From IMG/VR virus record IMGVR_UViG_3300028886_000047: a stretch of DNA of 64,000 nt. One strand, written 5' to 3'. The translations under genes and the position numbers were made by a program. Each line of letters starts with the position of its first letter. The first letter of the stretch is position 1. The notes below the pieces were generated by a model, which ran no database searches, was not told where the DNA came from, and saw only the letters and a program-made list of their open reading frames with translations. The DNA is from a virus (Duplodnaviria > Heunggongvirae > Uroviricota > Caudoviricetes). This document shows positions 13,448-41,923 of this stretch, piece after piece.

Positions 13448-13448
13448 T

Positions 13449-19400: not shown

Positions 19401-22400
19401 GAATTAATTGCTCCAAAAAATTATAAAACTACTTTTGGATTATAGACTGGAGACAATGTTTAGGAAATATCTTAGAATAAGTTATTCTTCTTAAAAAGAA
19501 TGATTGACAATCAATACAGATTAGAAAACGGGCATTGGGTAGATAGAAATCCAATTTCTTCTGATAAATATGACATTATTCTAAAAACAGTTTCAGGAAA
19601 GTCTTATCCAATATTATATAAGTCTGATACAACTAAAATTCCAGAAGGGTTAAGTGTAATCACAGAATAGGATTTTTATGCAAATCTTGATTGGGATGGC
19701 AGTAAAGTTTACAGATTAAATGGAGATGGTGATAGAATTTATGAATTACCTTATCATAAAGATTCTTCTGGAAAGATAGTTTATGATGCAGAAATACTTG
19801 TCGATGAAAATGGAAATGAAGTTATTTATACTGATAAATTAAATTTCTTTGTAAATAAATTACAATTTAATTATGTTGATTTTGGAAAAAATATATTAAA
19901 TCTACCATTTATTTATGATATATTTAAGCAATTAAGTACTTCTAAGAAAAATTCGGTTAAACAATTATCTTCTAATTATTTATCAGAAATTGAACAATTT
20001 AATCAAGTTTCACGTTTAGAAGATAGAATAAATAATGAAAAAGATGAATAGAAAAAATAGGATTTGAGTACTAGATTAGTATAGATTACTTCTGGTGAAG
20101 AATTTAACAAATAGTTAAAACAACAAATATCTGAAGGATTTAATTTAAGAGATTAGTATTTAACCCAATTAAATACTGAAATTTTAGCTGGAGAAATTAA
20201 AGGAAATTATACTGGAATGTTTGCTCAGATAATTAACTCTGCTATTGAAACACATACATCGTTTATTAAATCTTTAGATTATATTGTTTCTAGAACTCCT
20301 GCACAATCACATCAATCGTTCATGCCTATGAAATTGGTAGCATTTGATGAATCAGATGTTAATAGCGCTTATGTAAGTCGTTATCAATTATATTTGCAAG
20401 GTTCAGACTTTGATGTAGATAAAGCTAGTTTACTTGGAAGTATTATACGAAATGGAAGGTATGTTGTATGGAGTCCCTTTATGAGTTTATAGTCTATAGA
20501 ACATTTAAGAGCTTCTGAAACATTACCATTTCCAACTGGAAAACAATTAGAAATAAGAGAAAGTCTTAATAGTCGTGTATATGATAAAATGGATAAACCT
20601 GTTCATTTAGTTTGGCATGATGATACAAGGATAACTTTTACTTTGCCAAATTTTGAATAGGAAATATATTTAGCAAAGAATCAATCTGGTATATGGGTAT
20701 CTAATTTAACTCAAGATATTATGAGAAATTAGATGACTCCAATGGAGGTATATTTAATTGAAAGAGCTATTACAGATAAAATCTCAGAAGGAGAAATATT
20801 TGACGCTCAATTTAATATAAGTCATTTAGGATTTAATGAAAATCGAGTAAAGGATTCTTCTAAATATTTATATGAAAAGGATTTTGAATAGTTTATAAAT
20901 TGTTTTGCTCCTATATTTGATTATAACGAAAAAGGGCAATTAGAATTTAATAAACTTACTGGAAGAGTAAGGCATATAATTGACAATATTGGCAATGAAC
21001 CACTTCAATATGATACTATATCTTACGAAAATTTAACACAAGATTAGTTAAAATAGAAATAGATTAATAATATAAAACAATTATCTATTTTAATTAATGC
21101 TTTAAATTCCTTTGGATAGATTCCAAAAGTAATGTCTAATGATTTAATGACAGCAATTTATAAAACTGTTAATGAACATAATTTATATTTTGTTAATTCT
21201 TTTGATACTAAAGACGCTGTAGTTAATTACATTAGTAGTAACATGTTTTAGATTTCTAGTGATCCAGTAAATTTAGTACAAGCTATGACTTCTGTGGATT
21301 AGCAGACTGATTATGTGAAAGAAGAAATTGCAAATAAGTCTCCGTTAGCTGAACAATCTAAACATTTTGATAAAGGAAATATAATGTCAATATTTAGATT
21401 ATTAAGATTAACCTTATCTGGAAAACAAAATACAGGTATAGAAGCATCTTCATTGAAAGTTATGGAAGCTATCAATCAATATTAGGATGTTATTCTTAAT
21501 TATGGTTCAGACGAAGAACAAAAATCATTAATCAAACCTATAAATATAGGAGGCTATAATATAGGATTAATATGTAATGCTTATTGTAAAAATATAGCAA
21601 ATATTAAATCTAAAGAAGTATATGACGCATTACAAGAAATCGATAATGATAATGACCAAGCTATATGGTTATCAGCATTCTTAAGTCTTAGTACTGACAA
21701 CGCTAAGGATCCTACTCTTGCTAAAATAAATGCTAATCCAGAAATGATTGGACTTTATAATTCCGGATTTGTGTTAGGATTGCCTATAAGTTTTTTATCT
21801 AAAATAATAATGTCTCCTACAGGAATGGCTATTGCCGATGTTCAATAGGGGGATATATTTCTGGGTTATAATAGTTCCAGAGATATAGGAAGAGTTATAA
21901 ATTATATTAAAGAAGGTCCTAGACTCAGTCCTAATATGACTACATTAGAAATATTAGGAAAAGCTATTCAACTACATAATCCCGGAGAAGTTACTATTTT
22001 TAATCTAAATAAACAACTTATTAGAAATTACTGGGATTAGTCTTAGTTATTAACAGCAAGAAGAATTATTGCATTAGCCAAAAGTCTTGCTTATGGTAAA
22101 GAAGGAGAAAAAATAGAATATAATATCCCTACTATTGAATCTAGATTATCTAGAGATATCTAGGTAACAAGACGAAGAATTTCTGGAATTAGTAAAGCTT
22201 TAGAAGCTAAGAAATAGCAAATAATTGAAAAAGATACCTTAGGAAGAAAACATAAAAAACTTGATGAAGATGTTACTGCATTAACAGCGTCTTTAGAAGA
22301 ATTGAATACAAAACTTACTGAATTACAAGATATTAAAAATGAATATAAAATAACTCAAACTATTCCTCAAAGTAGAAATGAAGGAGATTAGTATGATTTA

Positions 22401-24323
22401 TATGAAAAATACCTTGAAAATTATAATTCTATTAAAGATGGAGAACAGTCTGATTCTTTGAAAAAATTATTTTAGGATAATAAAGAATATATACAGAATT
22501 CTTCTAACTTCAAAAAGACTATTTAGGATATTGAAAACTGGTTAGATACTATTGAATAGGTTCAAATGGATGAAGGATACACAGATGCTGAAGGAAATAA
22601 ATATAGCACTGTAAAAATATTAGAATAGTTAAATGAATTTGCTTCGGAAATGTCCTTAATACGTCCAAATCTCAGCCTCAATCAACAACTTCCTAATTCT
22701 AAAGAAAATCAACTTTCATTTATTAAAAAATTTGAAAATATGATAAATGATAGAATTACCTTAGGAAAAGTTGAGAATGCAAGTAAAATCAATGAAATAT
22801 AGGATTTCAAAGACTTTAACGAGCGTAAAGGGATTGAGGGATTAAATATTTCTATATCTGAATTTGTATGGGATGAAGAATATAGAAATGCTGCAATAAG
22901 AGCATACGATTCTATTAAATTTAAAGTGAATGCTTTAGATGTACTAGTCAAAGTGCCTCATTATTTTGGATATTTAAAAGCTTGTGATGCTTTATATCAG
23001 TCATTAGCTTATCAGTCAGTACAATATAGAGAACAAGACAGAATCTTAAGTAAAATAATCATAGGAGATTTAAAAATAAAAGCATCCAAAGATATTTAGT
23101 CAAGATTGAAAGTTGCTTCTAGGTATATTTCTAGACAAATGAATAATATGTTCTTATTAGAACAAAATATAGAATTAACTATTCCTAAAATAACTGATGG
23201 TAAAGTTGATACTTCTGTAAAAGTTCCAATTAAATTAGGTACAAAAGAAGGAAATGAAGCGTTCAAAGAATGGATGGATTTTGTAATTATTCCTCAGTAG
23301 AAATCTAAGTATAAATCTAATAGATTTTTAAATGAACTTTCAGAGGCGGCTTATCATAAATCTGATAATCATAATACAATTATAAATTATACTACTAACA
23401 TAGATAGTATGACAAATAACCCTACCGAAGTTACAAAATTTGCTGAAATAACTGAGGGATTTAATAATTTGCAATCTAAAACTATAGGAGATTTGCCGTT
23501 AGTAGAAGCTTTCTTTTATTATGATTTAATAGCTTATGATAGATAGCCAGGTCAGTTATCATTAACTCCGATTTTTAATAAATTAGTAGCATTAGGGAAA
23601 ACTAAAGTTATTTCCGATTATGTTCAATTTGTATCAGACTTGGATTAGGGAGGCAATATTATTTTAACTTTAGATGAAAGTTAGATAGATGAAATTAAGA
23701 GATTTATAGCTCCTGTTATTTCCATTTATGCTTTAGATGAATTTGATGAAGAATATGGGTGGGTAAAAGATCCAGAAGACTAGCAATTTTATCTTATAAA
23801 GAGAAATCCTAAGCCTAAAAATAATAAAAACGATGATTTTGGCGCAATGGACGATCCTAATATTGATAATCCAGAAATAGATATTGAAGGAATAGGTCCT
23901 GATGGTGATATTAATTAGGAAGAAAATCCTGAAAATCCTCAATATTAGCAAATTACCTTGAGTTCTAAATTAGCAGAACTTGAATGGGAGCCTGGAGTTC
24001 GTAAATTCGAAAGAATTACAGATTCTGGAAATTTAAATAGCCCTTATATTGAAAATTTTATAGTTCAAGAACAACAAACGTTATTAGAAGGACAGGGAAT
24101 AATTACACCTAAAGAAATAAGATTCGGAAATGATTCAATTACATTAGATGATGGAAAACCTAATATTCCAGATAATATCAGAAAGAGATTACAAGAAATT
24201 ACTGGACAAAATAACATAGATGATTTAATAGTAACTAAAGTTATAGTTGAAGGCTCTTCTAGAGAAACTGTAATTGATATAGATACTACGAAAGGAAATT
24301 TAGAAAACCCGTGTAAAGGATGA
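13449..24323 (+). CDS. giant late-module protein (3624 codons), TAG-recoded, unknown function
   Basis: ATG 13449 lies 1 nt after the previous TAA. Frame 3 is open to the TGA at 24321-24323. I checked codon by codon across 20460-22060 and 13446-14700 and every interruption is TAG. Track frame-3 ORFs 14418, 14712, 14910, 15678, 16470, 17271, 17991, 18477, 20217, 23106 and 23958 are fragments. Confidence 0.55.
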
Positions 24324-24373: not shown

Positions 24374-25375
24374 ATGTCTGGTATTTCCGAGTATTCTTTA
24401 GATAGTTATATATCTACATTCTAGACAAAATTTAATAGAATGCCTAAGTTAGATGAATTACCTAGAGTTAACTCGGAACCTTATTTAGAGAAAGTTTTAG
24501 GAATTAAGAAATTATCTAATATAAGGACTATTAATACTAATAGACTACTAGAATATACAGGAACAAATTCTGTAGAAGAAGCAAATATTAAGTTAAATTC
24601 TATATATAAAGATTTAGAAATTACTTTAACTCCATTTTAGAGTTTTACTTCTATTGAAGTAAGACATAGGCCATCTGTATATACATCAATTAAAGAGCCT
24701 TTAAATATAGAAGAATTCAAATAGGATGGAGCTACCATTTTATCTAAACAATTAGATAAAATGTAGAAACTGTATGGGATAAATATAATTCCTGTTTCTA
24801 GTGATGAAATATAGGAATTAGGAATTCCTAATGGGTCTTAGGTTAAGGGATTTGTGAAAAATGGAAATATTTATATAAATATTGAAAATTCTACAATGGA
24901 TACTAAAGTACACGAATTAATGCATATATTTCTAGGAGGAATAAGATATTCTAATCCAGAATTATATTTTTCATTAGTTAATCAAGTAGAATAGCTCCCT
25001 AGATATTAGGAATTTTCAGAAAGATTTCCTAATAGAACAAGAGGTGATATTAACGAAGAAATATTTGTTCAAGAGTTTGCTAATTATTTAACTAAATCTC
25101 CTAGTATATTTGATAATTTTGAAAATACGAGTGAATTAATGTATGAAATATACAGGAATATAGATACATTAATAGATGGAAATTATAGTGTTAAATCTTT
25201 ACAAACTTCAGCGTTTGGAGAAACTTTGGAAAATTTATATAAAAATTTACAATCAGAAAATATAATTAATAAACAAACAGGTTCCTTAGATGATTCAACT
25301 TTACATAGGACACTTGCTAATGTAAAAGAAAATTTAATGAAAAAGAATTTATTGGAGGAAAGATGTGATGGCTAA
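24374..25375 (+). CDS. late-module protein (333 aa), TAG-recoded, unknown function
   Basis: Frame 2; first ATG after the upstream stop. In-frame TAGs at 24422 and others. Ends TAA 25373-25375. Track ORFs 24440 and 25139 are fragments. Confidence 0.5.
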
Positions 25376-25442
25376 TTGTAAATATATATTAGGATAGAGA
25401 GTTTTTAATTCAGAAATATAGTTAGACGATTATCTTTCTGAA

Positions 25443-28400
25443 ATGAAAAATTTATATAAATAGTTTGGAGATGAAGTATTTAGTAAATCTTGGACTCCTG
25501 TATAGCAAACATATAGACAAAAATTATTTTCTTAGAAGGAATAGCTAGAAAAAGCTATCAAATCAGGAAAAATAAAGCTAGAAATTTCTGATATGGAAGA
25601 TTTAGATTTAGATGGAATAGTAGATTCCGCTGAAGGAAGAGGTGTTACTTCTATAATGTAGGAATTAAAAAGTTTAGATAATAAAAACGTATTTCCTATT
25701 TTTAACAAAGATAATTATTGGAATAATATAAGAGGAGAATTACGAGACGGAAATTGGAATAGTGATAAAATTAAAGATTTTATTCCATATATATTTGACG
25801 AAAGAGACTCTGAAGGAAATTATATAACACATCCTATAACAACAGAGGAAGAATTTAATCAGATAAGAAATAGGATAGAATCTATGTGGAAATAGCAAGG
25901 ATTAATAGGAACCGTTGTTCACGATATATTTGATATTTTATATTCAAATTATACTACTGAAAATGGAACTAATATTAAAAATTTGCCAAAACAATAGTTT
26001 AAAGAGGAAATTAAAAGAATATTATCTAAAAAACCAGAACCTAATGCCTATCGTAAATTATTAAATGAATTTGGAACCGATTTAAATAAAAATAATAGTT
26101 TTTTAGAGAGTGTTATAGATAATGCTCTTAAATTTAATGAGGATTTGAAACAACAATTTGATCCTAAAAATGAAGGATTAATGGTGCTTCCCGAAATTAC
26201 TATAAAAGGTATGGCTACTCTAAATAATCAATTATTTAAAGTAATAGGACGTATGGATATGGTAGTAATTAAACCTGATGGTGAAGTACATATAATCGAT
26301 TATAAATGTTCTCCTAAAGAATATCGAAATTATAACGAAGCAAAAAAATTAACTTTTAATTATCAATTAGCAGTATATAGAAGAATTCTACAACAATTAG
26401 GAATAAATAAAGATCAGATTCATTTATGGGTAGTTCCGATTTAGTTTACTAATTTTGATATAGATAAATCTAATAATTTAGTAACTTTAGATGGAGTAAA
26501 ATTACGTGATGGCGCTACCTTTGAAGAATTAGAAGTATCTTCTCCTACTGTAAATGCTCATAAGTATCAAATAGTTGAAGATAACTTAAATAATTCATTC
26601 AAATATGAACACGTTGAAGATGTTTCTGATGAACATATTCTTGAAAAAACGAGAAATTGGATAAGAAAAGTATTTCCTGAATATTCTAAAATTTCGGAAG
26701 TAACCGACGAGAATGTATTAGATTTTTGCAAAAGAAGAAAATGTGTAGTATAGGATGAAAAAACTGGAAAATGGGGATTTAGACGATATAAAAATGCTGA
26801 TTTGAAATATGTTAAAGATACAGAACAAGAAGTAATAAATGCTATCAAACAAGAGTGGGAAAATAATAGATAGAGAAATTTAGAAAGTACTAAATCTATA
26901 AAGAGAGAATTAAAAAAAGCTCAAAAAGAAAATTTAGGCAGAGGAGCTTTGTTTAATATTACACTATATTCTAAAGATAAACAATCTTAGAAAACTCCTG
27001 ACTGGGCACAGCAAATTCTTCAAAAATATGCTAATGAAGATTGGACAGTAGAAGAAACTCCAGAAGCTCTTGATTCTTTAGGAATAATTCTTGTTAGAAA
27101 TTTAACAACTGATAGAATCGATGTTATTAAATTATCTTCTACATACGATTTAGATGCTGAAATAGGTTTTGGCAATAATAGAACAACATTATTTGGAAAC
27201 TTTGTGTCTGACCATGTTGCAAAGAGTTAGCCTAATTCGTTAGTAATGCAAAGTACTAGAGGAAATGTAGAACTTATGGAAACAATGTATGCTTTAAATT
27301 GTATGCCTAGTATATTTAATAACGATAATGCGTTTTTAGGAGAAATTCAAGTAATATCTCATTATAATGAAGGAGGAGGAGCTAATAATAAATCTTTATT
27401 GTATAATTTTTAGAAATTAATGAATTATTCTAATAAAGAAGATTCGCCAGAAGTTAATTATTTTAATAATAAAAATATAAAAGTAGCTTCATTTGTACAA
27501 TTAGCTTAGGATACTTTAACTAGAATAATTAATAATAATCGAGGAACAAGATGGAACAAATTTGAGGAAGCTTCTAATAATTTACACAAATTTCAAGGTA
27601 ATAAAGAACAAATACTTTCTGAATTAATTAAATTAAAACAGCAAATAGAAAACGTTCCAGGATTTGAATATTTAGCCAGAGATGGAGTGATGACTTCCAT
27701 ATATGATGATTATAATTCTCCAGAAAAAAGGTTATATGCAGAAGTAATGTTAGCTATAGGAGAAATAGGAGGGTTAACTTATCAACAACAAACTAAAGAC
27801 CACGCTAACATTTTTGAAGGAAACAGTTTAATAAAAGCTTTTTTATGGGATGGATTTAATGGAAATCTTACTGACAACCCTGGAACTCTTCGAAGTGAAA
27901 CCTTAAATCAAGCTTCACATCTTGTAGATGTTGCTTATTAGAATATTCGTGATTAGTTATTCAAATATAAAAATAATTTAGAAAAAATATTAGATGAATA
28001 TAAATAGTATAAGGGACAATTTGCTAGTTAGAAAGATTTATATGAGAATTTTTATAATAAAGATATAACTGATGATTTAGTTTTTAAAAACCCCTTTGTT
28101 CCAAATAACGGATTAGATGATATGGAAAGGAAAGTTTTAAAAGCTATATTGTTGGATATTGCTCATAGAAGAAATTCTACAATTATTAATGAAGATACCT
28201 TGAGATCCGCAATTGAAAATGACTCTGATTATCTTTTAGTTCCATTAATTAAAAGTACTAGTAAACCTGTAACTAAATCATTAGGTGATTTTATGTCTAG
28301 AACTAGAAAGTTCTTAATGGGATTTAATATTAAAAATGCGAAAGATTCTTTAAAGGAAAAGTTATTAGATTTTACATCAAAAGAATCTATAAATGAGCCT

Positions 28401-30257
28401 AATAGGGAGGAAACTATATGGGAAATGACTAATTCCATAGATATTAATCCCGAAAATAGAAAAGAAAGGATAACTTTAGGAGGAGGCATAGAAAATTTTG
28501 AAACTAATTTAGAAATGTTGGCATTAAAACATGAATATGCTTATATTTAGAAACAAGAAGTTAATAAAATATTGCCATTTATGAAAGCCCTTTCAATTCA
28601 TTTGGCTAATCAAGGAATTATATTAAATGATAATTTTGAAAATGACCTAAATTATATCTAGAATTTTATAAAAGCTAAAATTCAAAATAAAAAATTATAG
28701 GATATTTAGTCGTTAGATAATTCATTTGTTTCTGATTTAATGAAAGGAACTTCAATATTAGCATTAGCGTTTAATCCCAAACAGCTCTATCAAATAATAG
28801 ATGGATTGTGGAAAGATATAAGATTAATTGTACAAAATGCTCATCGAGAGGGTGATGTAAATATGTCATTTAAAAATTTTAAGGATTCATTTTTTTGGAT
28901 AATACAAGATGTTGCAAAATTTAATGGAGAATTATCTATAGGAGAAGCCTTGAATCAATTATATGGAATTAATGATATGGATATAAACTAGCTTCCAAGT
29001 AGATACGCTAAAGATACTTATGGAACAGATAGGCTTCAAAAAGCTATGTTTAGATTTGCGTCAAGGCCTGACTATTATAATCGTATGACTATTTTTGGTG
29101 CACAGATGAGAGGAGACGGTTGTTTTGAAGCTCATTCAATAGTTGATGGTCAGTTAGTATATGATTGGACTAAGGATAAACGTTTTGATATATTTGCTAA
29201 ATATAAAGGAGATATATCTAAAGTTCCTACTTCAGAACAAAATAAATTCAGACAATAGCAATCTTTATATAGTGCTATGGCAGACGAAATGGTTAAAGAT
29301 GGAACTTTAAATCCTGATGGAACTAAATTTGTTAAAGATATGAAAAATCCTAAACCCCTTCCAAAAGCTTATACAGTAAAATAGTCTGAATCAATGAAAG
29401 CATTAGGAGATAAAACTTATGGTTATTATGCTTCTGAAAAGAAATCATTAATACAAAGTTTTACCTTAGGAGCTATTATATTTCAAATGAATACGTTCTG
29501 GTCTTCCAAAAAGAATCAATATTTCTCTGGAAGAGGTTATACTTAGGAAGGGGAATTTGTTGATTATGTTGAAGAAAATCCAGAAGATCCAGAACATCCG
29601 ATAGAATATTGTTAGAAATACAATAAAGAAACAGGAGAAATGGATATAATAAGAAAAGATGTTGAAGACACTGGAATCCCTTATAAAGTGTGGAAAGGTC
29701 GTCCTCAAGAGGGAATAGTAATAACTCTTAGTCATATGATAGCTAATATAATTACTGGAGAAAGAGATTATGAGGGAATACGTTTTTGGGACCCATATTG
29801 GAATGATGATGACCCCTATCTTAGAAAAATGTATAGAGCAAATCTTAGACAATTATTAGCAGACTTACTTGGAATGATATTGATTGGTATGATAATATCT
29901 CCCAGTCTAGTAAATGCCGCAAATAGTTATGCTAAAGAAACGGGTTCTGAAACCATAGGAGAAGCGACAATGGGATATTTAGCCACTTTATCTGCGGGGA
30001 TGTTACAAACATCTACTGATGATTTTAATTTTACAAAATCAGTATTTGGTAGAGGTATTCAATGGACTCCTTTTTCTTTACAATCTGGAACTAGATTTTT
30101 AACTAATTGTGGAAATTGGTTATTTGGAGATTAGGATTTTTATGATACATTAACAAAACAAATAGCATTTACAAGAAATGCTAAACCTATTATGAACTTT
30201 ATAAAAAATGAAACTCTCGGCAGAGACATAGGAGATAATGGAAAATCTAAAGAATAA
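25443..30257 (+). CDS. large late-module protein (1604 codons), TAG-recoded, unknown function; hydrophobic segment near the C-terminus
   Basis: Frame 3. ATG 25443 is the first ATG after the frame-2 stop. Open to TAA 30255-30257 with only TAG interruptions. Track ORFs 26145, 27687, 28122, 28740, 29046 and 29640 are fragments. Confidence 0.55.
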
Positions 30258-30282
30258 AAAAAAATAACGGAGAACTGAACTC

Positions 30283-30324
30283 AAAAAAAAAATAAAGGAA
30301 GAATGATATTCATTCTTCCTTTTT
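30283..30324. terminator. bidirectional intrinsic terminator: A-run, perfect 10-bp inverted repeat ggaagaatga/tcattcttcc (30297-30319), T-run
   Basis: Seen directly. The hairpin is flanked by aaaaaaaaaataaa upstream and ttttt downstream. It sits between convergent genes ending at 30257 (+) and 30310 (-). Confidence 0.6.
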
Positions 30325-31020
30325 CCATATATATTTTCCAGCTGTTTTATATTTTCCTTTACAACATAATGAAATACTAGATTGAGAAATTCCCGTAATA
30401 CTACTAGCTTCTGAAATAGATTTATAATTTTTTAAGAAATTTCCAGTTAAGTCGTATTGTTTTACATTATAAGTATTATATTTATTTGCTTTTTCTAAAA
30501 CATTTTTTAAAGTATCTCCTTCTAATAGAGCATAACTCCAAATATAATTTTTATATTTTGTACGTTCTCCATTCAAAACTCTATATATCTTTGATGGATT
30601 AAATCCATCAATTGATGCCTAATTAGCATTATTCCATTCTTTTATAAAATTTCCTTTTAAATCATACTAATATACTTTTTTTCTAATAATATTTTTCTTA
30701 TCATTTACATTATCAGGATTAAACTCTTTTACCCAATCTTTTAAATCTCCTATATCTATTTTATATTTTGAAAATATTCTTAATACTTCCGGATTTTTCT
30801 AAAATAATTCTCTACTTATTTTAAAATTTTTACATAAAGTATGTAATTCTTTTTCAATAATTTTATCTTCTTTTTCCTAATCCAATGTAGTTTTAGGATT
30901 AACTATTAAATTAACTAACTAAACATTTTCTCTTGCGTTTTTAAATGAAGAAAATCTTTTATAAATATTAGAAGTGATTCCAATTTTATAACAAGTCTAA
31001 AAATCAAATAAATAAATCAT
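30310..31020 (-). CDS. T5orf172 (GIY-YIG-like) domain plus two NUMOD1 DNA-binding repeats; homing-endonuclease-like; requires TAG readthrough (5 in-frame TAG)
   Basis: ATG at 31020-31018. N-terminus MIYLFDFQTCYKIGITSNIYKRF matches the T5orf172 pattern. Two repeats Y(Q/TAG)YDLxGNF(I/L)K and ISEASSITGIS match NUMOD1. In-frame TAGs at 30619, 30667, 30799, 30877, 30919 and 30997. The track shows only the 3' fragment 30310..30576. Confidence 0.6.
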
Positions 31021-31220
31021 AAAAATTTAAGTTTAAAAAATTATTTTACCTAATTTATTATTCCCATATTTTTATCAAAATATTTTATTATTTTAATATA
31101 TTCTTTCCTTTAAAATTTTAATTTTAACATATCTAAAATTATCTACAATCGATTTTTATAGTAAAGTTGAATAATTTATCATCTAAAAATTTTTAGACTC
31201 TTATAGAAAAAAATAAAAAA

Positions 31221-31260
31221 ATAAGGCTGTACTATCAAATTAATGATAATACAGCCTTAT
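31221..31260. terminator. bidirectional intrinsic terminator: long imperfect hairpin ataaggctgta-c-tatca / tgata-a-tacagccttat flanked by A-rich and T-rich runs
   Basis: Seen directly. It lies between the minus-strand module (flotillin gene ends 31274) and the T5orf172 gene. Confidence 0.6.
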
Positions 31261-31273
31261 TTAATTATTTTTT

Positions 31274-32716
31274 TTATTTATTTGTATTTACAGGAATTTC
31301 TCCTTTAATATCATAATTCTTATTTACCTTAGCATCGTATGTTTCAGCTTTCATTATATCAGACATATCAACTCCTGTTGCAGATTTAACTACATCAAAT
31401 GTTTGTTTGATAACAGCAGGAACATTTCCAGATACTGTAGAAGCATCTCCGCCATATATATTCATGTTATCAATAGCACTAATTGGCTTAGCAACACTCT
31501 CGGCAACATTAGGAAGAATCTTGGTAATCATTTCAATGACAGCTGCACTACCATACTTCTTGAATGCTTCAGCCTTCTTTTCCATTGCTTGAGCCTCAGC
31601 AAGACCCTTAAGCTCAATTGCTTTAGCTGAAGCTTCACCTGTCTGTGCTATTTTATAAGCTTCTGCCTCTGCTTCTGCCTTAATACCTATAGCCTTCTGC
31701 TCATAAGAATATCTTTCTGCCTCTGCCTTTCTTTTTGCCAATTCCAAATCAGCTTCTGCCTTCTTAGAAATTGCATACTTATCAGCATCTGCTTTCTTGT
31801 TAACCTCTGCTTCTAATTTATTCTGCATAACTTTAACTTGTTCTGCAGCAAGCTCCTGCTCCTTTTGAGTTCTAATAATCTGAGCCTCAACAGTTCTGGT
31901 ATTTACTTCCTTTAACTGCTGCTGTTTCTGAATTTCATAAGCTGCATCAGCAATAGCTTTCTTTGTATCACTTTCTTTCTTTAAATCTGCTTTCTTTATT
32001 AACAGTTCATTCTGTCTTTCTGCAATCTGAGTTTCAGAGAGTACTTGAGCATCATTAGCAAGTTTTGCATTTTCTGCTGCAACTATTGCAATTTCCTTCT
32101 GTGCAATAGCTTTGGCGTTAGCTGCTTCTTTCTTAATCTTCCAAGTGTTATCAGCACCCATATTCTCAATAAGGCCTTGTTCATCAGTAACATTTTGAAT
32201 ATTACATGACAAGATAGAAATTCCTAACTTCTCCATATCTTTTTGAGCTTTATCCTGAACATTATTTGAGAAAGCATCTCTGTCATTATTAAGAGATTTT
32301 AAATCTACTGTGCCAATAATCTCTCTCATATTACCTTGCAGAGAATCTTTTAATTGTGTAGCAATTTGAGTAACATTCATATTCAAGAAATTCTTTGCAG
32401 CTAATCTAATTCCAGCTAATGTATTAGTAGGAGCTACTTTAGCAACAGCATCTACTTTTACATTGATAAAGTCTTTAGTCGGAACAGGGACATCTGTCTT
32501 AATGTCAACAGTAATCTGCCCAAGATATAGCTTATCAAGTCTTTCAAAGAATGGAATCTTAAATCCACCCTTTCCAATAAGAATACGAGGTTCTTTACTA
32601 AGTCCTGCTATTATGTAAGCCACGTTAGAAGGAGCTTTTACATAAGAAGCAAAGAATAAAACTACTAACAAAATTGCAACAACTGCAATAGCAATAAACA
32701 TTAAATTAATTGTCAT
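31274..32716 (-). CDS. SPFH/band-7 flotillin-like membrane protein (N-terminal TM helix, SPFH domain, Ala/Glu-rich coiled-coil repeats)
   Basis: Hydrophobic N-terminus FIAIAVVAILLVVLFFA. C-terminal AEAEAEAYKIAQ...AEAQAMEKKAEAF repeats are typical of FloT/YqiK-type flotillins. Confidence 0.65.
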   Translation of the reverse strand: MTINLMFIAIAVVAILLVVLFFASYVKAPSNVAYIIAGLSKEPRILIGKGGFKIPFFERLDKLYLGQITVDIKTDVPVPTKDFINVKVDAVAKVAPTNTLAGIRLAAKNFLNMNVTQIATQLKDSLQGNMREIIGTVDLKSLNNDRDAFSNNVQDKAQKDMEKLGISILSCNIQNVTDEQGLIENMGADNTWKIKKEAANAKAIAQKEIAIVAAENAKLANDAQVLSETQIAERQNELLIKKADLKKESDTKKAIADAAYEIQKQQQLKEVNTRTVEAQIIRTQKEQELAAEQVKVMQNKLEAEVNKKADADKYAISKKAEADLELAKRKAEAERYSYEQKAIGIKAEAEAEAYKIAQTGEASAKAIELKGLAEAQAMEKKAEAFKKYGSAAVIEMITKILPNVAESVAKPISAIDNMNIYGGDASTVSGNVPAVIKQTFDVVKSATGVDMSDIMKAETYDAKVNKNYDIKGEIPVNTNK

Positions 32717-33290
32717 AATACTCTTTTAATAAATTAATAACATTAGGATTAACATATCTGCTTAAATGCTCATCTGAATAATGAGCATCCATTTTATTTC
32801 TAGTTCTTAATATTTCTCTAATTCGAGTAGACGATATAGAATTTGCTGGCCTATCACATATTAGAAAATTATAATCTTGAATTATTGCTTCACCATTCAT
32901 CCAATCTGGAATATCCTTAATAGTATCTTCTCCACACAAAATATATATTTCATCATTACAATATTTATTCTTTAAAGCATGGAGAGTAGCATAACTATAA
33001 TAAGGTGGAATAAGTTCTTTTTCTATTAGAGAAATTAATAAATTAGATTCTATTTCGAAATCATTATCAAAAGTATATGGAAAAAATATTTCATTTCTCT
33101 CAATTAAACTATTAATAATAATTAAAACCCTTTTATTAATATCAAGAACTTCCTCCTTTTTCCAAGGATTTTGCATTGTTGGAACAATAATTACTTCATC
33201 CATTTTAAAGTCATTTAAAGCAGTTTTAACACACTCTAAATGACCATTATGAAATGGATTAAATGAACCAAGATATAATGCAATTTTCAT
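32706..33290 (-). CDS. nadD: nicotinate-nucleotide (NaMN/NMN) adenylyltransferase, NadD family
   Basis: GSFNPFHNGH (HxGH nucleotidyltransferase motif) and the C-terminal ISSTRIR motif of NadD. Confidence 0.7.
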   Translation of the reverse strand: MKIALYLGSFNPFHNGHLECVKTALNDFKMDEVIIVPTMQNPWKKEEVLDINKRVLIIINSLIERNEIFFPYTFDNDFEIESNLLISLIEKELIPPYYSYATLHALKNKYCNDEIYILCGEDTIKDIPDWMNGEAIIQDYNFLICDRPANSISSTRIREILRTRNKMDAHYSDEHLSRYVNPNVINLLKEYYDN

Positions 33291-33418
33291 ACTGGAAAAC
33301 CTGTAGAAGCAAGTTTTACCTTTTCTTCTAACTGTTTAATTTTCTCATCTTGTTCCTTTTGGTGATTTTCTAATTCTTCAATTCTTTTAAGAATTAATTG
33401 TTCTTCTCTATAAGTCAT
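33287..33418 (-). CDS. small coiled-coil ORF (43 aa), ATGA-coupled to nadD
   Basis: ATG 33418 to TGA 33287-33289. Overlaps the nadD start by 4 nt. Below the track size cutoff. Confidence 0.3.
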   Translation of the reverse strand: MTYREEQLILKRIEELENHQKEQDEKIKQLEEKVKLASTGFPV

Positions 33419-33441
33419 CTTATATTAAATTTAAAATGATT

Positions 33442-33636
33442 TTATAAAATGTCATTATCGTAAATAGAAATACCTTCTTTAACAATAATTATTTTTTTAT
33501 TACAATCTGGACAAATTATCCAACAATTTCCATGAGGACGTTTTTCACATATAACATCTCCTTGTACATATTGTAACTTAGCCTTACAACTTGGACAAAT
33601 AACTGTTCTTATTCCGTGTTCTAATACTTTAATCAT
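33442..33636 (-). CDS. small zinc-ribbon protein (two CxxC pairs)
   Basis: CPSCKAK...CPDCNKK. Confidence 0.4.
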   Translation of the reverse strand: MIKVLEHGIRTVICPSCKAKLQYVQGDVICEKRPHGNCWIICPDCNKKIIIVKEGISIYDNDIL

Positions 33637-33851
33637 ATTAAATCTTTAATGTTCTCCAAATACCTTAATTCAGATTCATTTGTAGCTGTTTCTATTTGAT
33701 AATCAAGTAATGACTGAGCTATATTTAAAAGATAACATTTTTCTTCATCTGACATTGCATCATTTACTTGAGTATCTTTAATAAAGTCTCTTAATCGTAT
33801 AGCAAATGTTACATCATTTACTATACGATTATCTTTAATAGGATTATTCAT
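33633..33851 (-). CDS. hypothetical protein
   Basis: Track ORF, same strand, 4-nt overlaps with both neighbours. Confidence 0.4.
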   Translation of the reverse strand: MNNPIKDNRIVNDVTFAIRLRDFIKDTQVNDAMSDEEKCYLLNIAQSLLDYQIETATNESELRYLENIKDLI

Positions 33852-33973
33852 TTCTTTTTAAATTGATTAAATATATCCTCAAATCCTGGAGGTAAATCGT
33901 AAGAATTACCTTGATTTTTAATTTTATAATTTATTTCAGCCATTATTCGCTGAAACTCTTCATATCCTGTCAT
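33848..33973 (-). CDS. small ORF (41 aa)
   Basis: ATG 33973 to TGA 33848. Fills the gap, with ATGA overlaps at both ends. Confidence 0.25.
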   Translation of the reverse strand: MTGYEEFQRIMAEINYKIKNQGNSYDLPPGFEDIFNQFKKK

Positions 33974-34164
33974 AGCCACTTAGTTGTAGTACATGTTACT
34001 CTCCAATCATTTGGATTAAATGTTTTGTCTGTTAAGGTATAAGGTTTAAAACCTATTTCTGGATATTTATAATTTGAATAATCATCTTGAAGCAATGTTG
34101 TAGCTTCTTCTAAAGATAATCTATTTTCCTTAAATGCTTTTAAAATAATTTCTGTTTTAGTCAT
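33970..34164 (-). CDS. hypothetical protein
   Basis: Track ORF. Confidence 0.4.
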   Translation of the reverse strand: MTKTEIILKAFKENRLSLEEATTLLQDDYSNYKYPEIGFKPYTLTDKTFNPNDWRVTCTTTKWL

Positions 34165-34852
34165 AAATAGATAAATATAAAGGTTTAAATTTCATCTTAT
34201 ATTGTTCATTTAATAAAGATACACAAGCAGTTTGTGTTCCATTATAATCTACAACTTCATGGTCACAAGTATGAAGATGTCCAAAAAAATGGTATTTAGG
34301 ATGTTTAGTTTTCAATACTTCTGCTAATTCTGGGTTGCCAATATGAGAACCATCTGCCCACCACACTGACTTATCAAGAATTACATCACTTCTACCATAA
34401 GCAGCGTCATGAGTAATTAAAAAATCTAAATTATCAGGAATCTTCTCAAATTGCTCAAGTTCATATTCTGGACTCATCATAAAAGCCCAATCCCCAAATG
34501 TATGACATAAAGGAGAGCCCCAAATTTTATATTCCTTACCTGTATTTAAATCTATAAAAGAAGCTCCTTCATTATTTAAAATAATGATATTAGTATTTCT
34601 GACAGCTTCTTTACATAAATCCATCCAAGCTTCACCTAGTAGATCGTGATTGCCGAATACCATGTAAATAAAATCTACTGGTTGGTTTTTACACCATGGA
34701 ATAAATACTTCTTTAAACCATTTGAAAGATTGTGGAATGTTCCGCTGTATTCGCAACGGAACAATATCTCCACAAATAAATAATATATCACTTTCTTCTA
34801 TAGACAATCCTTCAAACTGTCCATGAATATCGCTTATAGCACATATTTTCAT
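34157..34852 (-). CDS. calcineurin-like metallophosphoesterase
   Basis: ISDIHG...CGDIV...GNHD motif series. Confidence 0.6.
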   Translation of the reverse strand: MKICAISDIHGQFEGLSIEESDILFICGDIVPLRIQRNIPQSFKWFKEVFIPWCKNQPVDFIYMVFGNHDLLGEAWMDLCKEAVRNTNIIILNNEGASFIDLNTGKEYKIWGSPLCHTFGDWAFMMSPEYELEQFEKIPDNLDFLITHDAAYGRSDVILDKSVWWADGSHIGNPELAEVLKTKHPKYHFFGHLHTCDHEVVDYNGTQTACVSLLNEQYKMKFKPLYLSIYD

Positions 34853-34973
34853 ATATTTAATATATATTTTGCTAATTTTACTTCGTTATCTGACCCTGTA
34901 TGCTTTACTACAGCAACAGAGCGGGAAATCCAATATTCCCGCCCTGTTTCTTTATCAATTATTGGAAAATTTT

Positions 34974-35549
34974 TCATATTGTTATTAATCCATTTTCTTC
35001 TATAAAATTATTTAATATTGTACCATCATCAATAGAAACAATTCCATCTAAGTACAGTTTAGGAGAAATGCCAACATCTAGGAGATTTTGAGTAGTTTCT
35101 TTTACACAATAATCTCCAGCAATTCCACACACTATAAAATCATTATTAGCATTTACAGTAGCTATGGAATCTAAATAATATCTTTCTCCAAATTCATCTT
35201 GACAGTATTCAATGTCAGAAAATGCTCCATATTCTTCAACTTCTTCAATTTGACCTTTAGGAACTACTTCAAAATCTATTTCCAAAGAATGAATAAATTT
35301 CAGTAATTTTGGTTCAATACATGCTCCAGGTGTAAACTGTACACAGTGAGATGGCCAGATTCCACCACTTCTTTTAAAAGACATGTGATTGTAAGGATGC
35401 CAATCTACAGTAAGAATAATTTTTTCAATATTCTTTTTGTTATTAGAAATAAATTCTTTGATATTAGCTACTATATTAGAGGCTCCTTTTACCTTCATTG
35501 TTCCGCTAATAAAATCATTTTGACAATCTACAATAATTAAAGTAATCAT
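34974..35549 (-). CDS. pncA: nicotinamidase/pyrazinamidase (PncA), isochorismatase-like hydrolase
   Basis: VDCQNDF (catalytic Asp), DWHPYNHMSF plus WPSHCVQFTPGA (metal-binding His/Asp), VPKG...YGAFSD (catalytic Lys region), GIAGDYCVKETT (catalytic Cys). Confidence 0.65.
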   Translation of the reverse strand: MITLIIVDCQNDFISGTMKVKGASNIVANIKEFISNNKKNIEKIILTVDWHPYNHMSFKRSGGIWPSHCVQFTPGACIEPKLLKFIHSLEIDFEVVPKGQIEEVEEYGAFSDIEYCQDEFGERYYLDSIATVNANNDFIVCGIAGDYCVKETTQNLLDVGISPKLYLDGIVSIDDGTILNNFIEENGLITI

Positions 35550-35625
35550 AAAAATTTGTTTTTAAAAGTTGAAGAAATTATATTTAAAAATATTATGAAA
35601 AATATGATGAATATTATAAATTCAA

Positions 35626-36192
35626 TCATTTCATTCCTTTAATTCGTTGAACAAATAAATCTGTTTTCTTGTCTCTTTTCGGAACTGTGAAAATTCCTTC
35701 AGTATGTTCTCTTAAATATTTAAAAAGATTTTCATTGTGTTCTGGGAACCATATTCCAGGCCAAAATAGATAACAGTGATAAACATTCCAATACTTTTTA
35801 ACTGCTTCCTTTACAGAAGTATTTCCGTTCATTCCTGCAATAACTATTTCATTGGATTCAGAATATTTTATGTTCTTTTCAACTGTGTTCCAAGATACAC
35901 ATATTTCATACGGAATTTTCAATCTCCATAAGAGCTTAAGAATTGTTGGTTCGATACAAGCTCCTGGAGTCCATTGAACACAATACATAGGATAATCTCC
36001 TCCATTTCGTTTAAAATATTCTTCATAAGGACTATTTAAAACGCACTTAAAGATAACCTTTTCAATATCTTCTTTATTTCGATTTATCCAAATCTTAGTA
36101 CGTTCAACAGCTTCTTTGCCACGTTTTTTCACTGACATGGAACCTGTTACAAAGTCAAGTTGGTCATCTACTAATAAAAGAATTTTACTCAT
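35626..36192 (-). CDS. PncA-like paralog lacking catalytic Lys/Cys and metal ligands (probable pseudo-enzyme)
   Basis: Alignable to 34974..35549 (VDDQLDF, CVQWTPGACIEP retained). DWHP becomes KCVLNS, HCV becomes YCV, VPKG is lost, GDYCV becomes GMNGNTSV. Confidence 0.5.
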   Translation of the reverse strand: MSKILLLVDDQLDFVTGSMSVKKRGKEAVERTKIWINRNKEDIEKVIFKCVLNSPYEEYFKRNGGDYPMYCVQWTPGACIEPTILKLLWRLKIPYEICVSWNTVEKNIKYSESNEIVIAGMNGNTSVKEAVKKYWNVYHCYLFWPGIWFPEHNENLFKYLREHTEGIFTVPKRDKKTDLFVQRIKGMK

Positions 36193-36679
36193 GTTGTAAT
36201 GATTTAACAGTTTCTGAAATTAATTTTCCATCTGCTGTGGGATAAATTTCTTTAACTGACTTAATAACTTTACCCATTTCCTTTTGAGTAAACCCATTTG
36301 GATACAATCCATAGACAGCCTCTTGGATTTTCTCTTTAGAAATTTCTGGAGGGAGAAGTTCTTTTAGATATTTCATTTGTTCTTTATACATATCCGCCAA
36401 GTCTTTACGACTATTAGCTTCATACATAGAAACTTGTTCTTCTCTTTCCTTAATTAATTTTCTAATAATCGAAAGGTCTAATTCATTTATCCAAATTTCA
36501 ACCTCGGTAGCAGGGTCTTCAAATACTCTAAATTTAAATCCTGTAAGTTGTTTGCCTTCAGGTTTAGGTTTTTTAGAAGAATTATTTAAAAGTAATTCAG
36601 CTTTAATAGCTCTATAAGCCTCTTTAGCAGCTCCGTTCTTTTCTAAAGTTGCTATTTTAATTAGTTTGTCTATATCCAT
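36185..36679 (-). CDS. GatB/YqeY-domain protein
   Basis: C-terminal ...MGKVIKSVKEIYPTADGKLISETVKSL resembles the YqeY family. Confidence 0.4.
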   Translation of the reverse strand: MDIDKLIKIATLEKNGAAKEAYRAIKAELLLNNSSKKPKPEGKQLTGFKFRVFEDPATEVEIWINELDLSIIRKLIKEREEQVSMYEANSRKDLADMYKEQMKYLKELLPPEISKEKIQEAVYGLYPNGFTQKEMGKVIKSVKEIYPTADGKLISETVKSLQHE

Positions 36680-36878
36680 TTGTTTCTAAAATATCAACAT
36701 TATTTATTAACCAATCATCTGAATGACCAGTAACATAATCATAACAATTTGGAGGAAAACCATACTGGTTATCAAATGCCTCATAAACATCATCCATTGT
36801 ATAATTTTCAGGAAGTTCTAAATTAACTTCTTTACTAATTTCTAAAAATACTCCTACTTCTACTTTCATAATTACCAA
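36657..36878 (-). CDS. hypothetical protein
   Basis: Track ORF. Confidence 0.4.
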   Translation of the reverse strand: MVIMKVEVGVFLEISKEVNLELPENYTMDDVYEAFDNQYGFPPNCYDYVTGHSDDWLINNVDILETNGYRQTN

Positions 36879-40244: not shown

Positions 40245-40521
40245 CCTTTATAACTCTAATTATACAATTTTGTCCATAAAGAGACCCTTCTATACAACAA
40301 CACTTTTTGGAAGGAGAACAATAATGAGTCCAAAATTCAAAATCATCATCTTTTTTCCATCCAGCTTCATCCAAACAATTAGAAAAAAGATTCCAAGATA
40401 TATTTGGACCTAAATCTATTTCATCCTCTTCTCCAGAATCTATGTCATGTAAAGCATTCATTATTGCTGATTTCATATATTTTTCAGCATTTTCTATATC
40501 TGTTTTAATATATTTATTCAT
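40234..40521 (-). CDS. hypothetical protein
   Basis: Track ORF. Its ATG overlaps the TGA of the HNH gene. Confidence 0.4.
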   Translation of the reverse strand: MNKYIKTDIENAEKYMKSAIMNALHDIDSGEEDEIDLGPNISWNLFSNCLDEAGWKKDDDFEFWTHYCSPSKKCCCIEGSLYGQNCIIRVIKDEN

Positions 40522-41240
40522 TTATTTAAATATTTACTTAAATTTTTAACTAAAAGAGAAAGTTCTTCTAAAGTTGCATTATTTTTTAATGTGTTTGCTC
40601 TTTTAGAAATAACCCATACATTTCCTTTAATATAACCTTTAGTAGAATCTATTCTATCTATAGAATAAGAATTATCCTAAGCACTTCCATAATGTGAATC
40701 TAATGGTATTTCTAATAATGGACATGTCTCTGGCAAAGTTATATCAGATGGTTCAATATTAAAATCTAAATTTTTATTCTAAGCTCGCTATTTGGCAGAT
40801 CTTATTAACTACTTAATTAAACTTTCTTTATTTAAATGCCTAGTTTCAATATTTTTTAAATTTTCCTAAGCCCTATATTCATCGTTTAATCTTTTTTCTC
40901 TTCTTGCCAATTTTCTCTACTCATTTCTTTTTCCATCTGATTCATATTTTTCTTTACAACATTCCTTGCACATAGCTCTATATCCGTATTTTCCTGATTT
41001 CATTTTATGAAATTCACTAAACGGTTTAAATTCTCCACAATGTGTACAAGTTCTTCCAGTAATTCCTTCATTTGGATCTAAAGTCTATTTATATTTTACA
41101 ATTAGACCATAATCTGTTAGTATCTTTGATACTGTATGTCTATCTAAATTTACTTTTTCTCCTATTTTAGTTAAAGATAAATTCTACTCTTTATATAAAG
41201 ATATTATTTCCTATATTAATTTATTATTTATTTCTTTCAT
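40518..41240 (-). CDS. HNH (HNH_3/I-HmuI-like) homing endonuclease with N-terminal HTH and zinc-binding cysteines; TAG-recoded (8 in-frame TAG)
   Basis: ATG 41240-41238 to TGA 40520-40518. With TAG read as Q: ...ETCPLLEIPLDSHYGSAQDNSYSIDRIDSTKGYIKGNVWVISKRANTLKNN matches HNH_3. All three stop codons break this region in the track, leaving a 740-bp gap with no ORF. CTHCGEFKPF...MCKECC cysteine cluster. Confidence 0.65.
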
Positions 41241-41263: not shown

Positions 41264-41923
41264 TCAATGCACCCAGAAGGTAGGCAATTCCCCATTAGGT
41301 AGTCTTGAAATATCTGCAGAAAGAAGCACTCTAGTACAGAACGGCTTAGCTCCTTTCTCCATACATTGTCGGAGTACTGATGCTACTTCTTCTGCAATAG
41401 AATCAGGAGCTTCTACATTCCATTCATCATGACATTGCAGACATATTAAAACTTTATTTTGATAATTATTTTTTAATATCCATTTAAAGAATAATATGCC
41501 TGACAATTTTGTTGCCATTGCTCCTCTATTTTGTATTCTGTAATTAATAGAATCTTTTTGAATATCTGTTTTAAATTTATTCCATTGTCCTAGCCAATAC
41601 ACTTCTTTACTATAAGGGTCATCACTTTTCATACTTTGATATGCTTCCCACCATCCAGGTTGACTTGTAAAATCTCTAATAGCTTTCCATTTATTGTCCC
41701 AATCTTCTATATGTGCTCTATGTCCAGTTACTGGATTCATTAAAATATATCCACGTTTTATTACCTCTTTACGACAATAATCTTGATATTTTTTAACTCC
41801 AGGGAAACCTTTCATATAAGAATCATAAATTTCTTTAGCTTCCTTTGGGTCTAGGCCATTGTTTTGTACCATAGTGGAATCATTTCCTCCGTAATTTATT
41901 GCGACAAATAGATATAACAACAA
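41264..41923 (-). CDS. polA: family A DNA polymerase, C-terminal part (rest of motif B AINYGG, motif C LQCHDEW)
   Basis: ...FVAINYGGNDSTM continues motif B, which is broken at the end of ORF 43034..44710. HDE motif C is present. Confidence 0.7.
   Translation of the reverse strand: MLLYLFVAINYGGNDSTMVQNNGLDPKEAKEIYDSYMKGFPGVKKYQDYCRKEVIKRGYILMNPVTGHRAHIEDWDNKWKAIRDFTSQPGWWEAYQSMKSDDPYSKEVYWLGQWNKFKTDIQKDSINYRIQNRGAMATKLSGILFFKWILKNNYQNKVLICLQCHDEWNVEAPDSIAEEVASVLRQCMEKGAKPFCTRVLLSADISRLPNGELPTFWVH

Follow-up and report, generated by a model that had tools for sequence, protein, structure and literature searches.

The window analysed here is a stretch of 64,000 nucleotides of DNA from a tailed phage (Caudoviricetes; IMG/VR record IMGVR_UViG_3300028886_000047), and the subject of this report is a gene on its - strand, at 30310-31020, that encodes a T5orf172-NUMOD1 endonuclease-like protein. 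This is a real, intact and mobile 'selfish' nuclease gene of a gut or rumen phage in which TAG is read as glutamine, and it probably constitutes a free-standing homing-endonuclease cassette. A long - strand module (31274-63301) has this gene as its last, set off from the rest by a terminator and converging with TAG-rich + strand genes ending at 30257; an earlier, sequence-only reading of this DNA had it sitting alone on its strand, which this placement corrects. The + strand genes are referred to below as late, a label that we infer from their TAG content, their size and the block pattern of TAG use.

Insertion at a conserved junction between two modules

Ten members of the gene's family could be placed in genome context (the window and the loci L026, L031, L032, L033, L035, L036, L043, L044 and L055). 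All ten occupy the same junction, where the 3' end of a late gene homologous to window 25368-30257 (~1,500-1,630 aa) meets the end of the opposite module. The gene is oriented as in the window, on the strand of the TAG-free module, in seven of the ten, and is flipped to the strand of the large gene in L031, L035 and L036.

Closer relatives came to light when the C-terminal part of the 1629-aa late protein was used as the query in a scan of JGI metagenome contigs. The late-gene C-termini of six contigs (L053, L059, L057, L050, L051 and L056) proved to be 70-89% identical to that of the window at the amino acid level, the late gene of the closest relatives being 84-87% identical in nucleotides, and no endonuclease gene was found at the junction in any of the six. 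This gene-free junction reads, in order, late-gene stop, hairpin A, a conserved element of ~90-115 bp, hairpin B and the stop codon of the final gene in the facing module, within ~200 bp. By blastn, the window aligned with L053 over 27000-30296 (84.3%), over 31112-31275 (77%) and in the NMNAT gene (78%), and nucleotide homology at the left side of the junction ended at 30296 with L053 and at 30287 with L050. The junction of the window is accordingly made up as follows, unstranded features being given without a strand.

30258-30296: spacer after the late-gene stop, keeping only the left half and the loop of the junction terminator hairpin A, which is intact in gene-free relatives
30294-30322: terminator hairpin downstream of the gene and between the convergent genes, 13 bp stem with a loop of 3 nt, -16.1 kcal/mol, z -3.8 (- strand) and -4.3 (+ strand)
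30297-31111, - strand: insertion relative to the closest gene-free relatives, 815 bp replacing 16 bp of L053, with its own terminator hairpin, the open reading frame (ORF) and a 90-nt leader
31021-31110, - strand: insert-specific proximal leader, with a conserved A/T-TTTGA-rich block ~45-60 nt before the ATG, missing at gene-free sites
31111-31200: conserved inter-terminator element, ~90-115 bp between the convergent terminators at the module seam
31219-31262: hairpin B, the terminator upstream of the gene, 19 bp stem, -32 kcal/mol, z -10.7 and -8.2 on the two strands

These comparisons show the insertion of a cassette of ~815 bp into a conserved spacer of ~200 bp between convergent terminators. 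Of hairpin A, the window retains the left half and the loop, the right half having been replaced. The stretch singled out by the sequence-only reading, 30283-31260, thus spans the insertion together with the resident conserved element and hairpin B. That reading had proposed a synteny comparison with related phages; once run, it gave closest relatives without the gene at the junction, and family members at the same junction in unrelated late-gene backgrounds. An intron-encoded homing endonuclease was also considered and rejected, as the gene is intergenic, between two stop codons; Rfam detected neither an intron nor any other RNA family, at gathering score, in the region or in the whole window.

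The gene that lies next to hairpin B (31274-32716, - strand, TAG-free) encodes an SPFH/flotillin-like membrane protein (Band_7, E 2.4e-20). It is a second, separate accessory insertion at this junction, missing from L053 and L059. Its relatives, 53-65% identical in amino acids, occur in 16 IMG/VR phage contigs of 56-181 kb (all but one >94 kb); as a lead to syntenic relatives it failed, these 16 contigs sharing nothing else with the window.

Horizontal transfer of the intergenic unit

The clearest case of movement is provided by L055 and L026, which are 97.5% identical in nucleotides over 1,070 bp, a block whose two ends coincide exactly with the stop codons of the late gene and of the final gene in the other module. 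Their endonuclease proteins are 99.6% identical and their late proteins 22.7%; beyond the shared block, one flank is 68% identical in nucleotides and the other is unalignable. A block so well preserved in phages whose late proteins are only 23% identical points to recent horizontal transfer, and shows that the whole intergenic unit moved recently between very different phages, with the same landing place. Other pairs are likewise discordant, in either direction: the window and L055 are 76% identical in the late protein and 45% in the endonuclease, and L033 and L043 are 80% identical in the endonuclease and 22% in the late protein. Repair-mediated homing, with the conserved spacer as homology, would give such same-place transfer. 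The suggestion of the sequence-only reading that the gene might be a selfish cassette is therefore supported both by the gene-free relatives and by one nearly identical allele in two unrelated backgrounds.

Near-identical cassettes in unrelated backgrounds mark the module seam as a recombination hotspot, and the cassette sits at the seam of two modules with different histories. An earlier transfer argument, based on endonuclease identities of 45-47% between lineages against 22% for the late gene, was dropped, since the neighbouring enzymes are 53-64% identical and the late gene is thus simply fast-evolving.

The gene and its protein

The frame runs uninterrupted from the ATG at 31020 to the TGA at 30312-30310, as the sequence-only reading had it, with 236 codons and not a single TAA or TGA; at the local A+T content of 79%, the chance of such a run is ~2e-10. 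An identical 236-aa product is predicted in two public assemblies, whose match to the window is 99.98-100%. Six in-frame TAGs are present, and not five as first counted, at codons 8, 34, 48, 74, 118 and 134 (30999-30997, 30921-30919, 30879-30877, 30801-30799, 30669-30667 and 30621-30619, respectively); all are contained in the first 134 codons, i.e., ahead of the second NUMOD1 repeat. The N-terminal sequence is MIYLFDF-TAG-TCYKIGITSNIYKRF. The gene and the domains of its product are listed here.

30310-31020, - strand: endonuclease-like ORF (P0001), 236 codons plus TGA, six TAGs read as Gln, encoding the T5orf172-NUMOD1 endonuclease-like protein
30721-31020, - strand: T5orf172/MUG113 domain with a predicted GIY-YIG-like fold, residues 1-100, holding four of the six TAGs
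30532-30681, - strand: NUMOD1 repeat 1, ~residues 114-163, with TAG118 at an invariant Gln position and also TAG134, from Pfam and the family alignments
30322-30471, - strand: NUMOD1/I-HmuI-like repeat 2, ~residues 184-233, in which the invariant Gln188 is encoded by CAA

The protein, with TAG translated as Gln, was searched against Pfam at the curated gathering cut-offs, and four families passed: (i) T5orf172, at residues 3-98 (24.5 bits, cut-off 20; E 4.1e-5), (ii) MUG113, at residues 11-81 (28.0 bits, cut-off 22.3; E 3.4e-6), (iii) NUMOD1, in two stretches (50.2 bits, cut-off 22.8; E 2.7e-13), and (iv) I-HmuI_NUMOD-like (28.8 bits, cut-off 27). This profile search, which the sequence-only reading had called for, bears out its assignment of a T5orf172 N-terminus, and the two NUMOD1 repeats are exactly as it described them, with TAG in one (VY-TAG-YDLKGNF) and CAA at the same position in the other (VK-CAA-YDLTGNF). 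In the predicted fold, the N-terminal domain has the three-stranded beta-sheet plus helices of the GIY-YIG superfamily, and the C-terminal NUMOD tail matches I-HmuI structurally. The fold prediction supports a GIY-YIG-superfamily nuclease domain of the T5orf172/MUG113 branch, and the architecture is that of an N-terminal nuclease head followed by two C-terminal NUMOD1 helix-turn-helix modules.

In a large protein collection we found 24 further full-length homologues (239-265 aa, 39-53% identity) of the same architecture. Thirteen residues are invariant in all 25 proteins (Y3, Y11, K12, I13, G14, T16, R22, R30, E31, E56, H60, C63 and E71), among which Y3, Y11, R22, E56 and E71 form a putative catalytic set with a spacing that resembles that of I-TevI, the GIY-YIG superfamily relying for catalysis on the Tyr of 'GIY', the Tyr of 'YIG', an Arg and a metal-binding Glu; the Gln of both NUMOD1 repeats (Q118 and Q188) is invariant as well. 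A profile search of 1.84 billion representative proteins returned tandem NUMOD1 pairs in thousands, while full-length matches came from only about six 50%-identity clusters, so that proteins combining T5orf172 with tandem NUMOD1 repeats form a small family. The INPHARED phage collection held no close relative, yielding only SPFH fragments and NUMOD1 matches in Staphylococcus phages.

TAG as a glutamine codon

In a codon-level alignment of nine family members, TAG interchanges with CAA/CAG at the three most conserved Gln columns (74, 142 and 221); at column 74, for instance, four members have TAG and four have CAA/CAG. The alleles of L032, L035 and L036 contain no TAG at all and carry ordinary Gln codons at the positions of TAG74 and TAG118 of the window. 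This interchange is direct comparative evidence, at the level of the sequence, that TAG is here a sense codon for glutamine, as had been proposed from the window by itself. TAG makes up six of the eight Gln codons (75%) of the gene. Across the family it accounts either for 45-75% of Gln codons (window, L026, L031, L033, L043, L044 and L055) or for none (L032, L035 and L036), and the large gene carries 15-50 TAGs in all of these phages, each of which uses TAG there as a sense codon.

The distribution of TAG over the window, whose G+C content is 28.7%, agrees with this. When TAG is read through, the + strand from 37 to 30257 encodes six large genes (404, 1160, 2906, 3635, 351 and 1629 aa) with 8-68 in-frame TAGs each, and TAG represents 37% (189/516) of the Gln codons of the + strand genes. 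The - strand from 31274 to 63301 holds replication, nucleotide-metabolism and NAD-salvage genes, among them ribonucleotide reductase, DNA ligase, DNA polymerase, a sigma-like factor and NMNAT, and is essentially TAG-free; the share of TAG in its non-endonuclease genes is 3.7% (10/272). Nine of these 10 TAGs come no later than codon 30 of the longest ORF beginning with ATG and hence probably lie upstream of the true start, and the exception, codon 313 of the GIY-YIG ORF 41956-42939, may be a real stop. Such a block pattern has been published for phages that switch to code 15 for their late genes, and the window fits it. Within this setting, the gene illustrates that recoded genes can form islands inside an otherwise standard-code module.

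If the TAGs were true stops, the frame would be a decayed pseudogene, or else the region would belong to a + strand gene. The standard code does fragment the frame, an ORF listing with a 30-aa minimum returning only two pieces, of 88 aa (30310-30576) and 30 aa (30915-31007). A decayed gene, on the other hand, would not be expected to show the absence of TAA and TGA described above, Pfam domains that extend across the TAGs, or TAGs aligned with conserved Gln codons, and the giant neighbouring genes themselves require TAG read-through. As for a + strand gene, no + strand ORF crosses the region; the late gene ends at 30257, and at the equivalent point in the relatives, and thus the longer + strand structural gene that the sequence-only reading had named as its refutation was not found. 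Both versions are contradicted by the data, and we regard them as extremely improbable. For annotation, the consequence is that the standard code hides the gene, of which only fragments of at most 88 aa appear.

Proposed homing and possible domestication

In two respects, the gene behaves as a homing gene is expected to: it is present or absent at a fixed site among close relatives, and it spreads independently of the flanking genome. During co-infection, the nuclease would cut the uninterrupted spacer of a cassette-free phage, and repair would then install a copy of the cassette there, with homology provided by the hairpins and by the conserved element of the spacer. The candidate target is the uninterrupted junction, consisting of the right arm of hairpin A with its T-tract, followed by AAAATTTTAATTTTAAGATATGTAGA; the promoter would be supplied by the conserved element, by the leader, or by both. 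Homing of this kind would explain at once the single constant junction, the gene-free close relatives and the near-identical copy in very different phages. The mapped gene-free site offers a concrete DNA substrate for a cleavage assay.

Several observations speak against this interpretation. Comparison of the family by hhalign was not significant either with a canonical GIY-YIG protein of the window or with I-TevI, for which an approximate sequence was used; the catalytic glutamate is consequently left between two candidates, E56 and E71. What the protein would cut, and where, is deduced from sequence, as is its activity as a nuclease. L055 is a 7.9-kb metagenome contig for which a chimeric assembly is conceivable, but unlikely, since three different sources would be needed. 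The + strand genes called late gain no structural annotation from PHROGs, in a search that gave no match at all for the 404-aa and 1,160-aa genes and did not extend to the two giant genes. No suppressor tRNA was detected in the window or in any related locus scanned: ARAGORN found no tRNA in these 64 kb or in 10 related loci, the remaining genome (>50 kb) being outside the scan, and the required amber suppressor must lie elsewhere in the genome. Finally, the family is uniformly intact and always found in one place, and its identity between lineages (45-47%) stands against 53-64% for the neighbouring enzymes; long residence with a useful function is possibly compatible with such intactness and constant position.

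This last point leads to a different explanation, in which the protein is a domesticated resident, that is, a site-specific DNA-binding protein or nuclease acting on the adjacent inter-terminator element, for example as a repressor or as an exclusion nuclease against competing phages. I-TevI represses its own promoter, and CapR in PLE is a second example of a repressor. The gene always adjoins the same conserved element, which is itself also found in gene-free genomes, every one of the 25 homologues is intact and keeps the invariant residues of the motifs, lineages differ in this gene about as much as they do in its neighbours, and domesticated T5orf172 proteins have been documented (PMC10448857). 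Yet the closest relatives manage without the gene, a near-identical copy occurs in unrelated backgrounds, and both orientations exist, which together indicate a moving element rather than a core function. We consider domestication unlikely as the explanation of the cassette; it is not mutually exclusive with homing, and the two can both hold.

A possible timing role of the TAG codons

Under the standard code, the first TAG, at codon 8, stops translation after 7 residues, so that the full-length nuclease requires amber suppression. Full-length enzyme would then be made only once suppression is active, which would confine a DNA-cutting enzyme to the late phase despite the location of its gene on the strand of the TAG-free module. 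Judging from codon usage, it is quite conceivable, if somewhat short of probable, that the TAGs serve to restrict nuclease production to the amber-suppression phase. Three - strand genes are TAG-dense, namely this gene, 40518-41240 (9 TAG, no CAA/CAG) and 56031-57140 (10 TAG), and all three are endonuclease-like; TAG density thus affects 3 of the 5 endonuclease-like genes on this strand and none of the 35 others (P = 0.001). Their pooled TAG share, 69%, also exceeds the 37% of the + strand genes (P = 1.4e-4).

Three observations weaken a timing role, namely that zero-TAG alleles occupy the same site in the equally recoded phages L032, L035 and L036, that two canonical GIY-YIG genes of the window, 60808-61728 and 41956-42939, are TAG-free, and that no suppressor tRNA turned up in the window or in the related loci scanned. 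The first two also speak for an alternative in which the gene is mobile and its TAGs have no regulatory role, reflecting either the codon habits of a donor or drift in a gene that is transcribed only late; to this we attach a fair share of likelihood without favouring it outright. TAG and CAA are equal in A+T, and drift between them is easy in an AT-rich genome; the gene has the lowest G+C content (21%) in the window gene list, taken alone, it exceeds the + strand genes in TAG share by a marginal amount (Fisher P = 0.057), and a third TAG-free endonuclease gene lies just outside the window. Neutral TAGs do not, however, readily account for the confinement of - strand TAG density to endonucleases or for the pooled excess given above. 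Neither do they readily account for the bimodal rather than graded TAG counts of the family, or for the independent report of the same pattern in TGA-recoded phages, where it concerns an intron endonuclease (bioRxiv 10.1101/2021.08.26.457843). A simpler generalization, by which every endonuclease of this phage would be TAG-rich, was rejected in view of two TAG-free GIY-YIG genes within the window and a TAG-free NUMOD1 gene just beyond it.

A broader and rather speculative proposal, which we hold to be doubtful as a whole, would combine two elements: TAG may, in this phage clade, be a translational lock adopted by selfish nucleases until the code switches, and the inter-terminator element may act as recognition site, as promoter/operator and as homology arm between otherwise unalignable phages. 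Were this true, TAG-rich and TAG-free alleles at one site, and TAG-rich and TAG-free endonucleases in one genome, would amount to a natural experiment on the purpose of recoding. Apart from this proposal, the restriction of TAG density to endonucleases on the standard-code strand carries over to TAG phages a published idea, by which recoding serves to delay functions that are dangerous or late, and the TAG-free sister alleles are ready comparators.

Terminators, leader and inter-terminator element

The terminator scan returned two hairpins, at 31262-31219 and 30322-30294, against 0.7 expected from shuffles. Both fold far better than shuffled sequences on either strand, and each is preceded by an A-run and followed by a T-run. 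The sequence-only reading had described two bidirectional terminators: flanking hairpins that are stable on both strands are indeed present, whereas the scan called both on the - strand only; to judge by the folds and by the A and T runs beside them, the two could plausibly act in both directions. The TGA stop of the gene (30312-30310) lies inside the downstream hairpin, as that reading had pointed out, and more precisely in its 5' arm. Hairpin B ends the - strand module, after the stop of the SPFH gene at 31274. It is homologous in the window, L032, L026, L043 and the relatives lacking the gene, and its copies vary on both stem arms in an apparently pair-preserving manner, as judged by eye and unscored.

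The proximal leader (31021-31110) contains no Shine-Dalgarno sequence, and Shine-Dalgarno-like motifs precede only 5 of 38 genes. Its A/T-TTTGA-rich block is possibly a promoter, to judge from its conservation. A sigma-70 scan performed no better than chance in this AT-rich DNA, and the leader motifs are single-copy, the rest of the window holding no repeat of them that might mark a promoter. The idea that the leader forms a structured RNA was rejected, there being no Rfam match, one 7-bp consensus hairpin and almost no covariation.

The inter-terminator element is located upstream of the gene in the window, L026, L032, L033, L043 and L055, and is found as well in L050, L051, L053, L056, L057, L059, L075 and L076; it is therefore kept with or without the gene. 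It matches no Rfam family and shows hardly any conserved RNA structure, a 7-bp consensus hairpin being all that was detected. It contains two palindromes, AGATGA-N8-TCATCT and TGTAGA-N4-TCTACA, and is a candidate promoter/operator, protein-binding or recognition site, recombination site or homology arm for transfer.

Other endonuclease-like and neighbouring genes

The two other TAG-dense genes of the - strand differ from the cassette in their domains. The first (40518-41240), directly after the last piece of the DNA polymerase, is HNH/endonuclease VII-like (phrog_3322, E 1.8e-34) with an N-terminal helix-turn-helix (HTH), and all nine of its Gln codons are TAG, within an otherwise TAG-free module. 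The product of the second (56031-57140) is a 369-aa endonuclease (phrog_559, E 1.3e-85) in which four DUF723/treble-clef Zn-finger repeats are combined with a nuclease domain at the C-terminus; the gene contains 10 in-frame TAGs, and its homologue in L032 (3087-4265) has 5.

DNA polymerase A is split on the - strand (43034-44782 and 41264-41872), the pieces being contiguous in the 725-aa polymerase of L022, and the canonical GIY-YIG ORF 41956-42939 (Pfam E 6e-13), in which codon 313 is the only TAG, lies between them. As Rfam detects no group I intron there, the polymerase gene is either split or interrupted by an intron that has escaped recognition. The gene at 60808-61728 (- strand, 306 aa, zero TAG) is a canonical GIY-YIG plus NUMOD1 endonuclease gene. 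Just past the end of the window (~window-equivalent 66.7-68 kb), two assemblies that are 99.9-100% identical, L041 and L040, differ by a ~1.2 kb insertion in L041 (4345-5555), which truncates a P-loop gene of 232 aa and brings in a TAG-free endonuclease-like gene of 285 aa bearing two NUMOD1 repeats. Within one phage population, the presence or absence of another mobile nuclease is here a live polymorphism.

On the + strand, the two giant genes within 4727-24323 (2,906 and 3,635 aa) hold 52 and 68 in-frame TAGs, and the 1,629-aa protein gives only a weak PD-(D/E)XK/exonuclease signal. On the - strand, an NAD-salvage cluster at 32706-36700 comprises NMNAT, isochorismatase/nicotinamidase and YqeY; in the relatives L032, L043 and L053, it also includes NAPRTase, NAD synthase and Nudix genes.

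Comparison with known systems

T5orf172 genes have been described as phage homing endonucleases found at boundaries of genetic exchange, and the placement of the cassette fits this published pattern (PMC10448857; Barth, Dunham & Seed 2023). About 87% of the genes described use Zn-finger DNA-binding repeats (CapR, DUF723 and DUF4397), and NUMOD domains go unmentioned in that work (PMC10448857). Like the T5orf172 genes of ICP1, T5-like and other phages, the present gene belongs to the same catalytic family, is free-standing and patchy among relatives, has modular repeats and lies at an exchange boundary. Unlike them, it combines an N-terminal nuclease with two NUMOD1 helix-turn-helix repeats, uses TAG for Gln and occupies a spacer between convergent terminators.

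The order of its parts and the type of its DNA-binding module are shared with I-TevI and the Seg proteins of T4, which consist of a GIY-YIG head, a linker and a NUMOD/HTH tail. Seg genes are free-standing between other genes and spread by cutting the gene-free allele ('intronless homing'), and the production of I-TevI, which also binds an operator at its own promoter, is confined to late infection. The NUMOD tail matches that of I-HmuI (phage SPO1, PDB 1u3e), whose catalytic domain is HNH and which is intron-encoded, whereas the present protein has a GIY-YIG-type domain and an intergenic gene.

The sequence-only reading had also likened the gene to a moron. Phage morons are independent promoter-gene-terminator units between conserved genes. 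The cassette resembles them in being a discrete, terminator-bounded unit with its own leader, set between conserved genes and missing from close relatives; the terminators on both sides and the insertion are observed, while a promoter is suggested by the conserved leader blocks. It differs from them in that its nuclease cargo plausibly serves the spread of the cassette itself rather than the benefit of a host, and no sign of lysogeny is seen in the window.

The closest precedent for a recoded endonuclease comes from the Agate phages, where a group I intron endonuclease rich in recoded TGA lies among standard-code genes and delayed, late production has been proposed (Borges et al., bioRxiv 10.1101/2021.08.26.457843). 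As in that case, our gene has standard-code genes around it and makes abundant use of the reassigned stop codon. The Agate enzyme, in contrast, uses TGA for Trp and is intron-encoded within an early gene, whereas ours uses TAG for Gln and is free-standing with its own terminators; here, moreover, sister alleles and neighbouring endonucleases without recoded codons are available. Recoded endonucleases inside standard-code modules have been reported once before, for TGA; T5orf172 homing endonucleases and endonucleases gated by stop codons are both in the literature, and the present finding would not surprise a specialist. Particular to the present system are the combination of T5orf172 with tandem NUMOD1 repeats, the intergenic site at a module seam, the resident conserved element, and the occurrence of both TAG-rich and TAG-free alleles.

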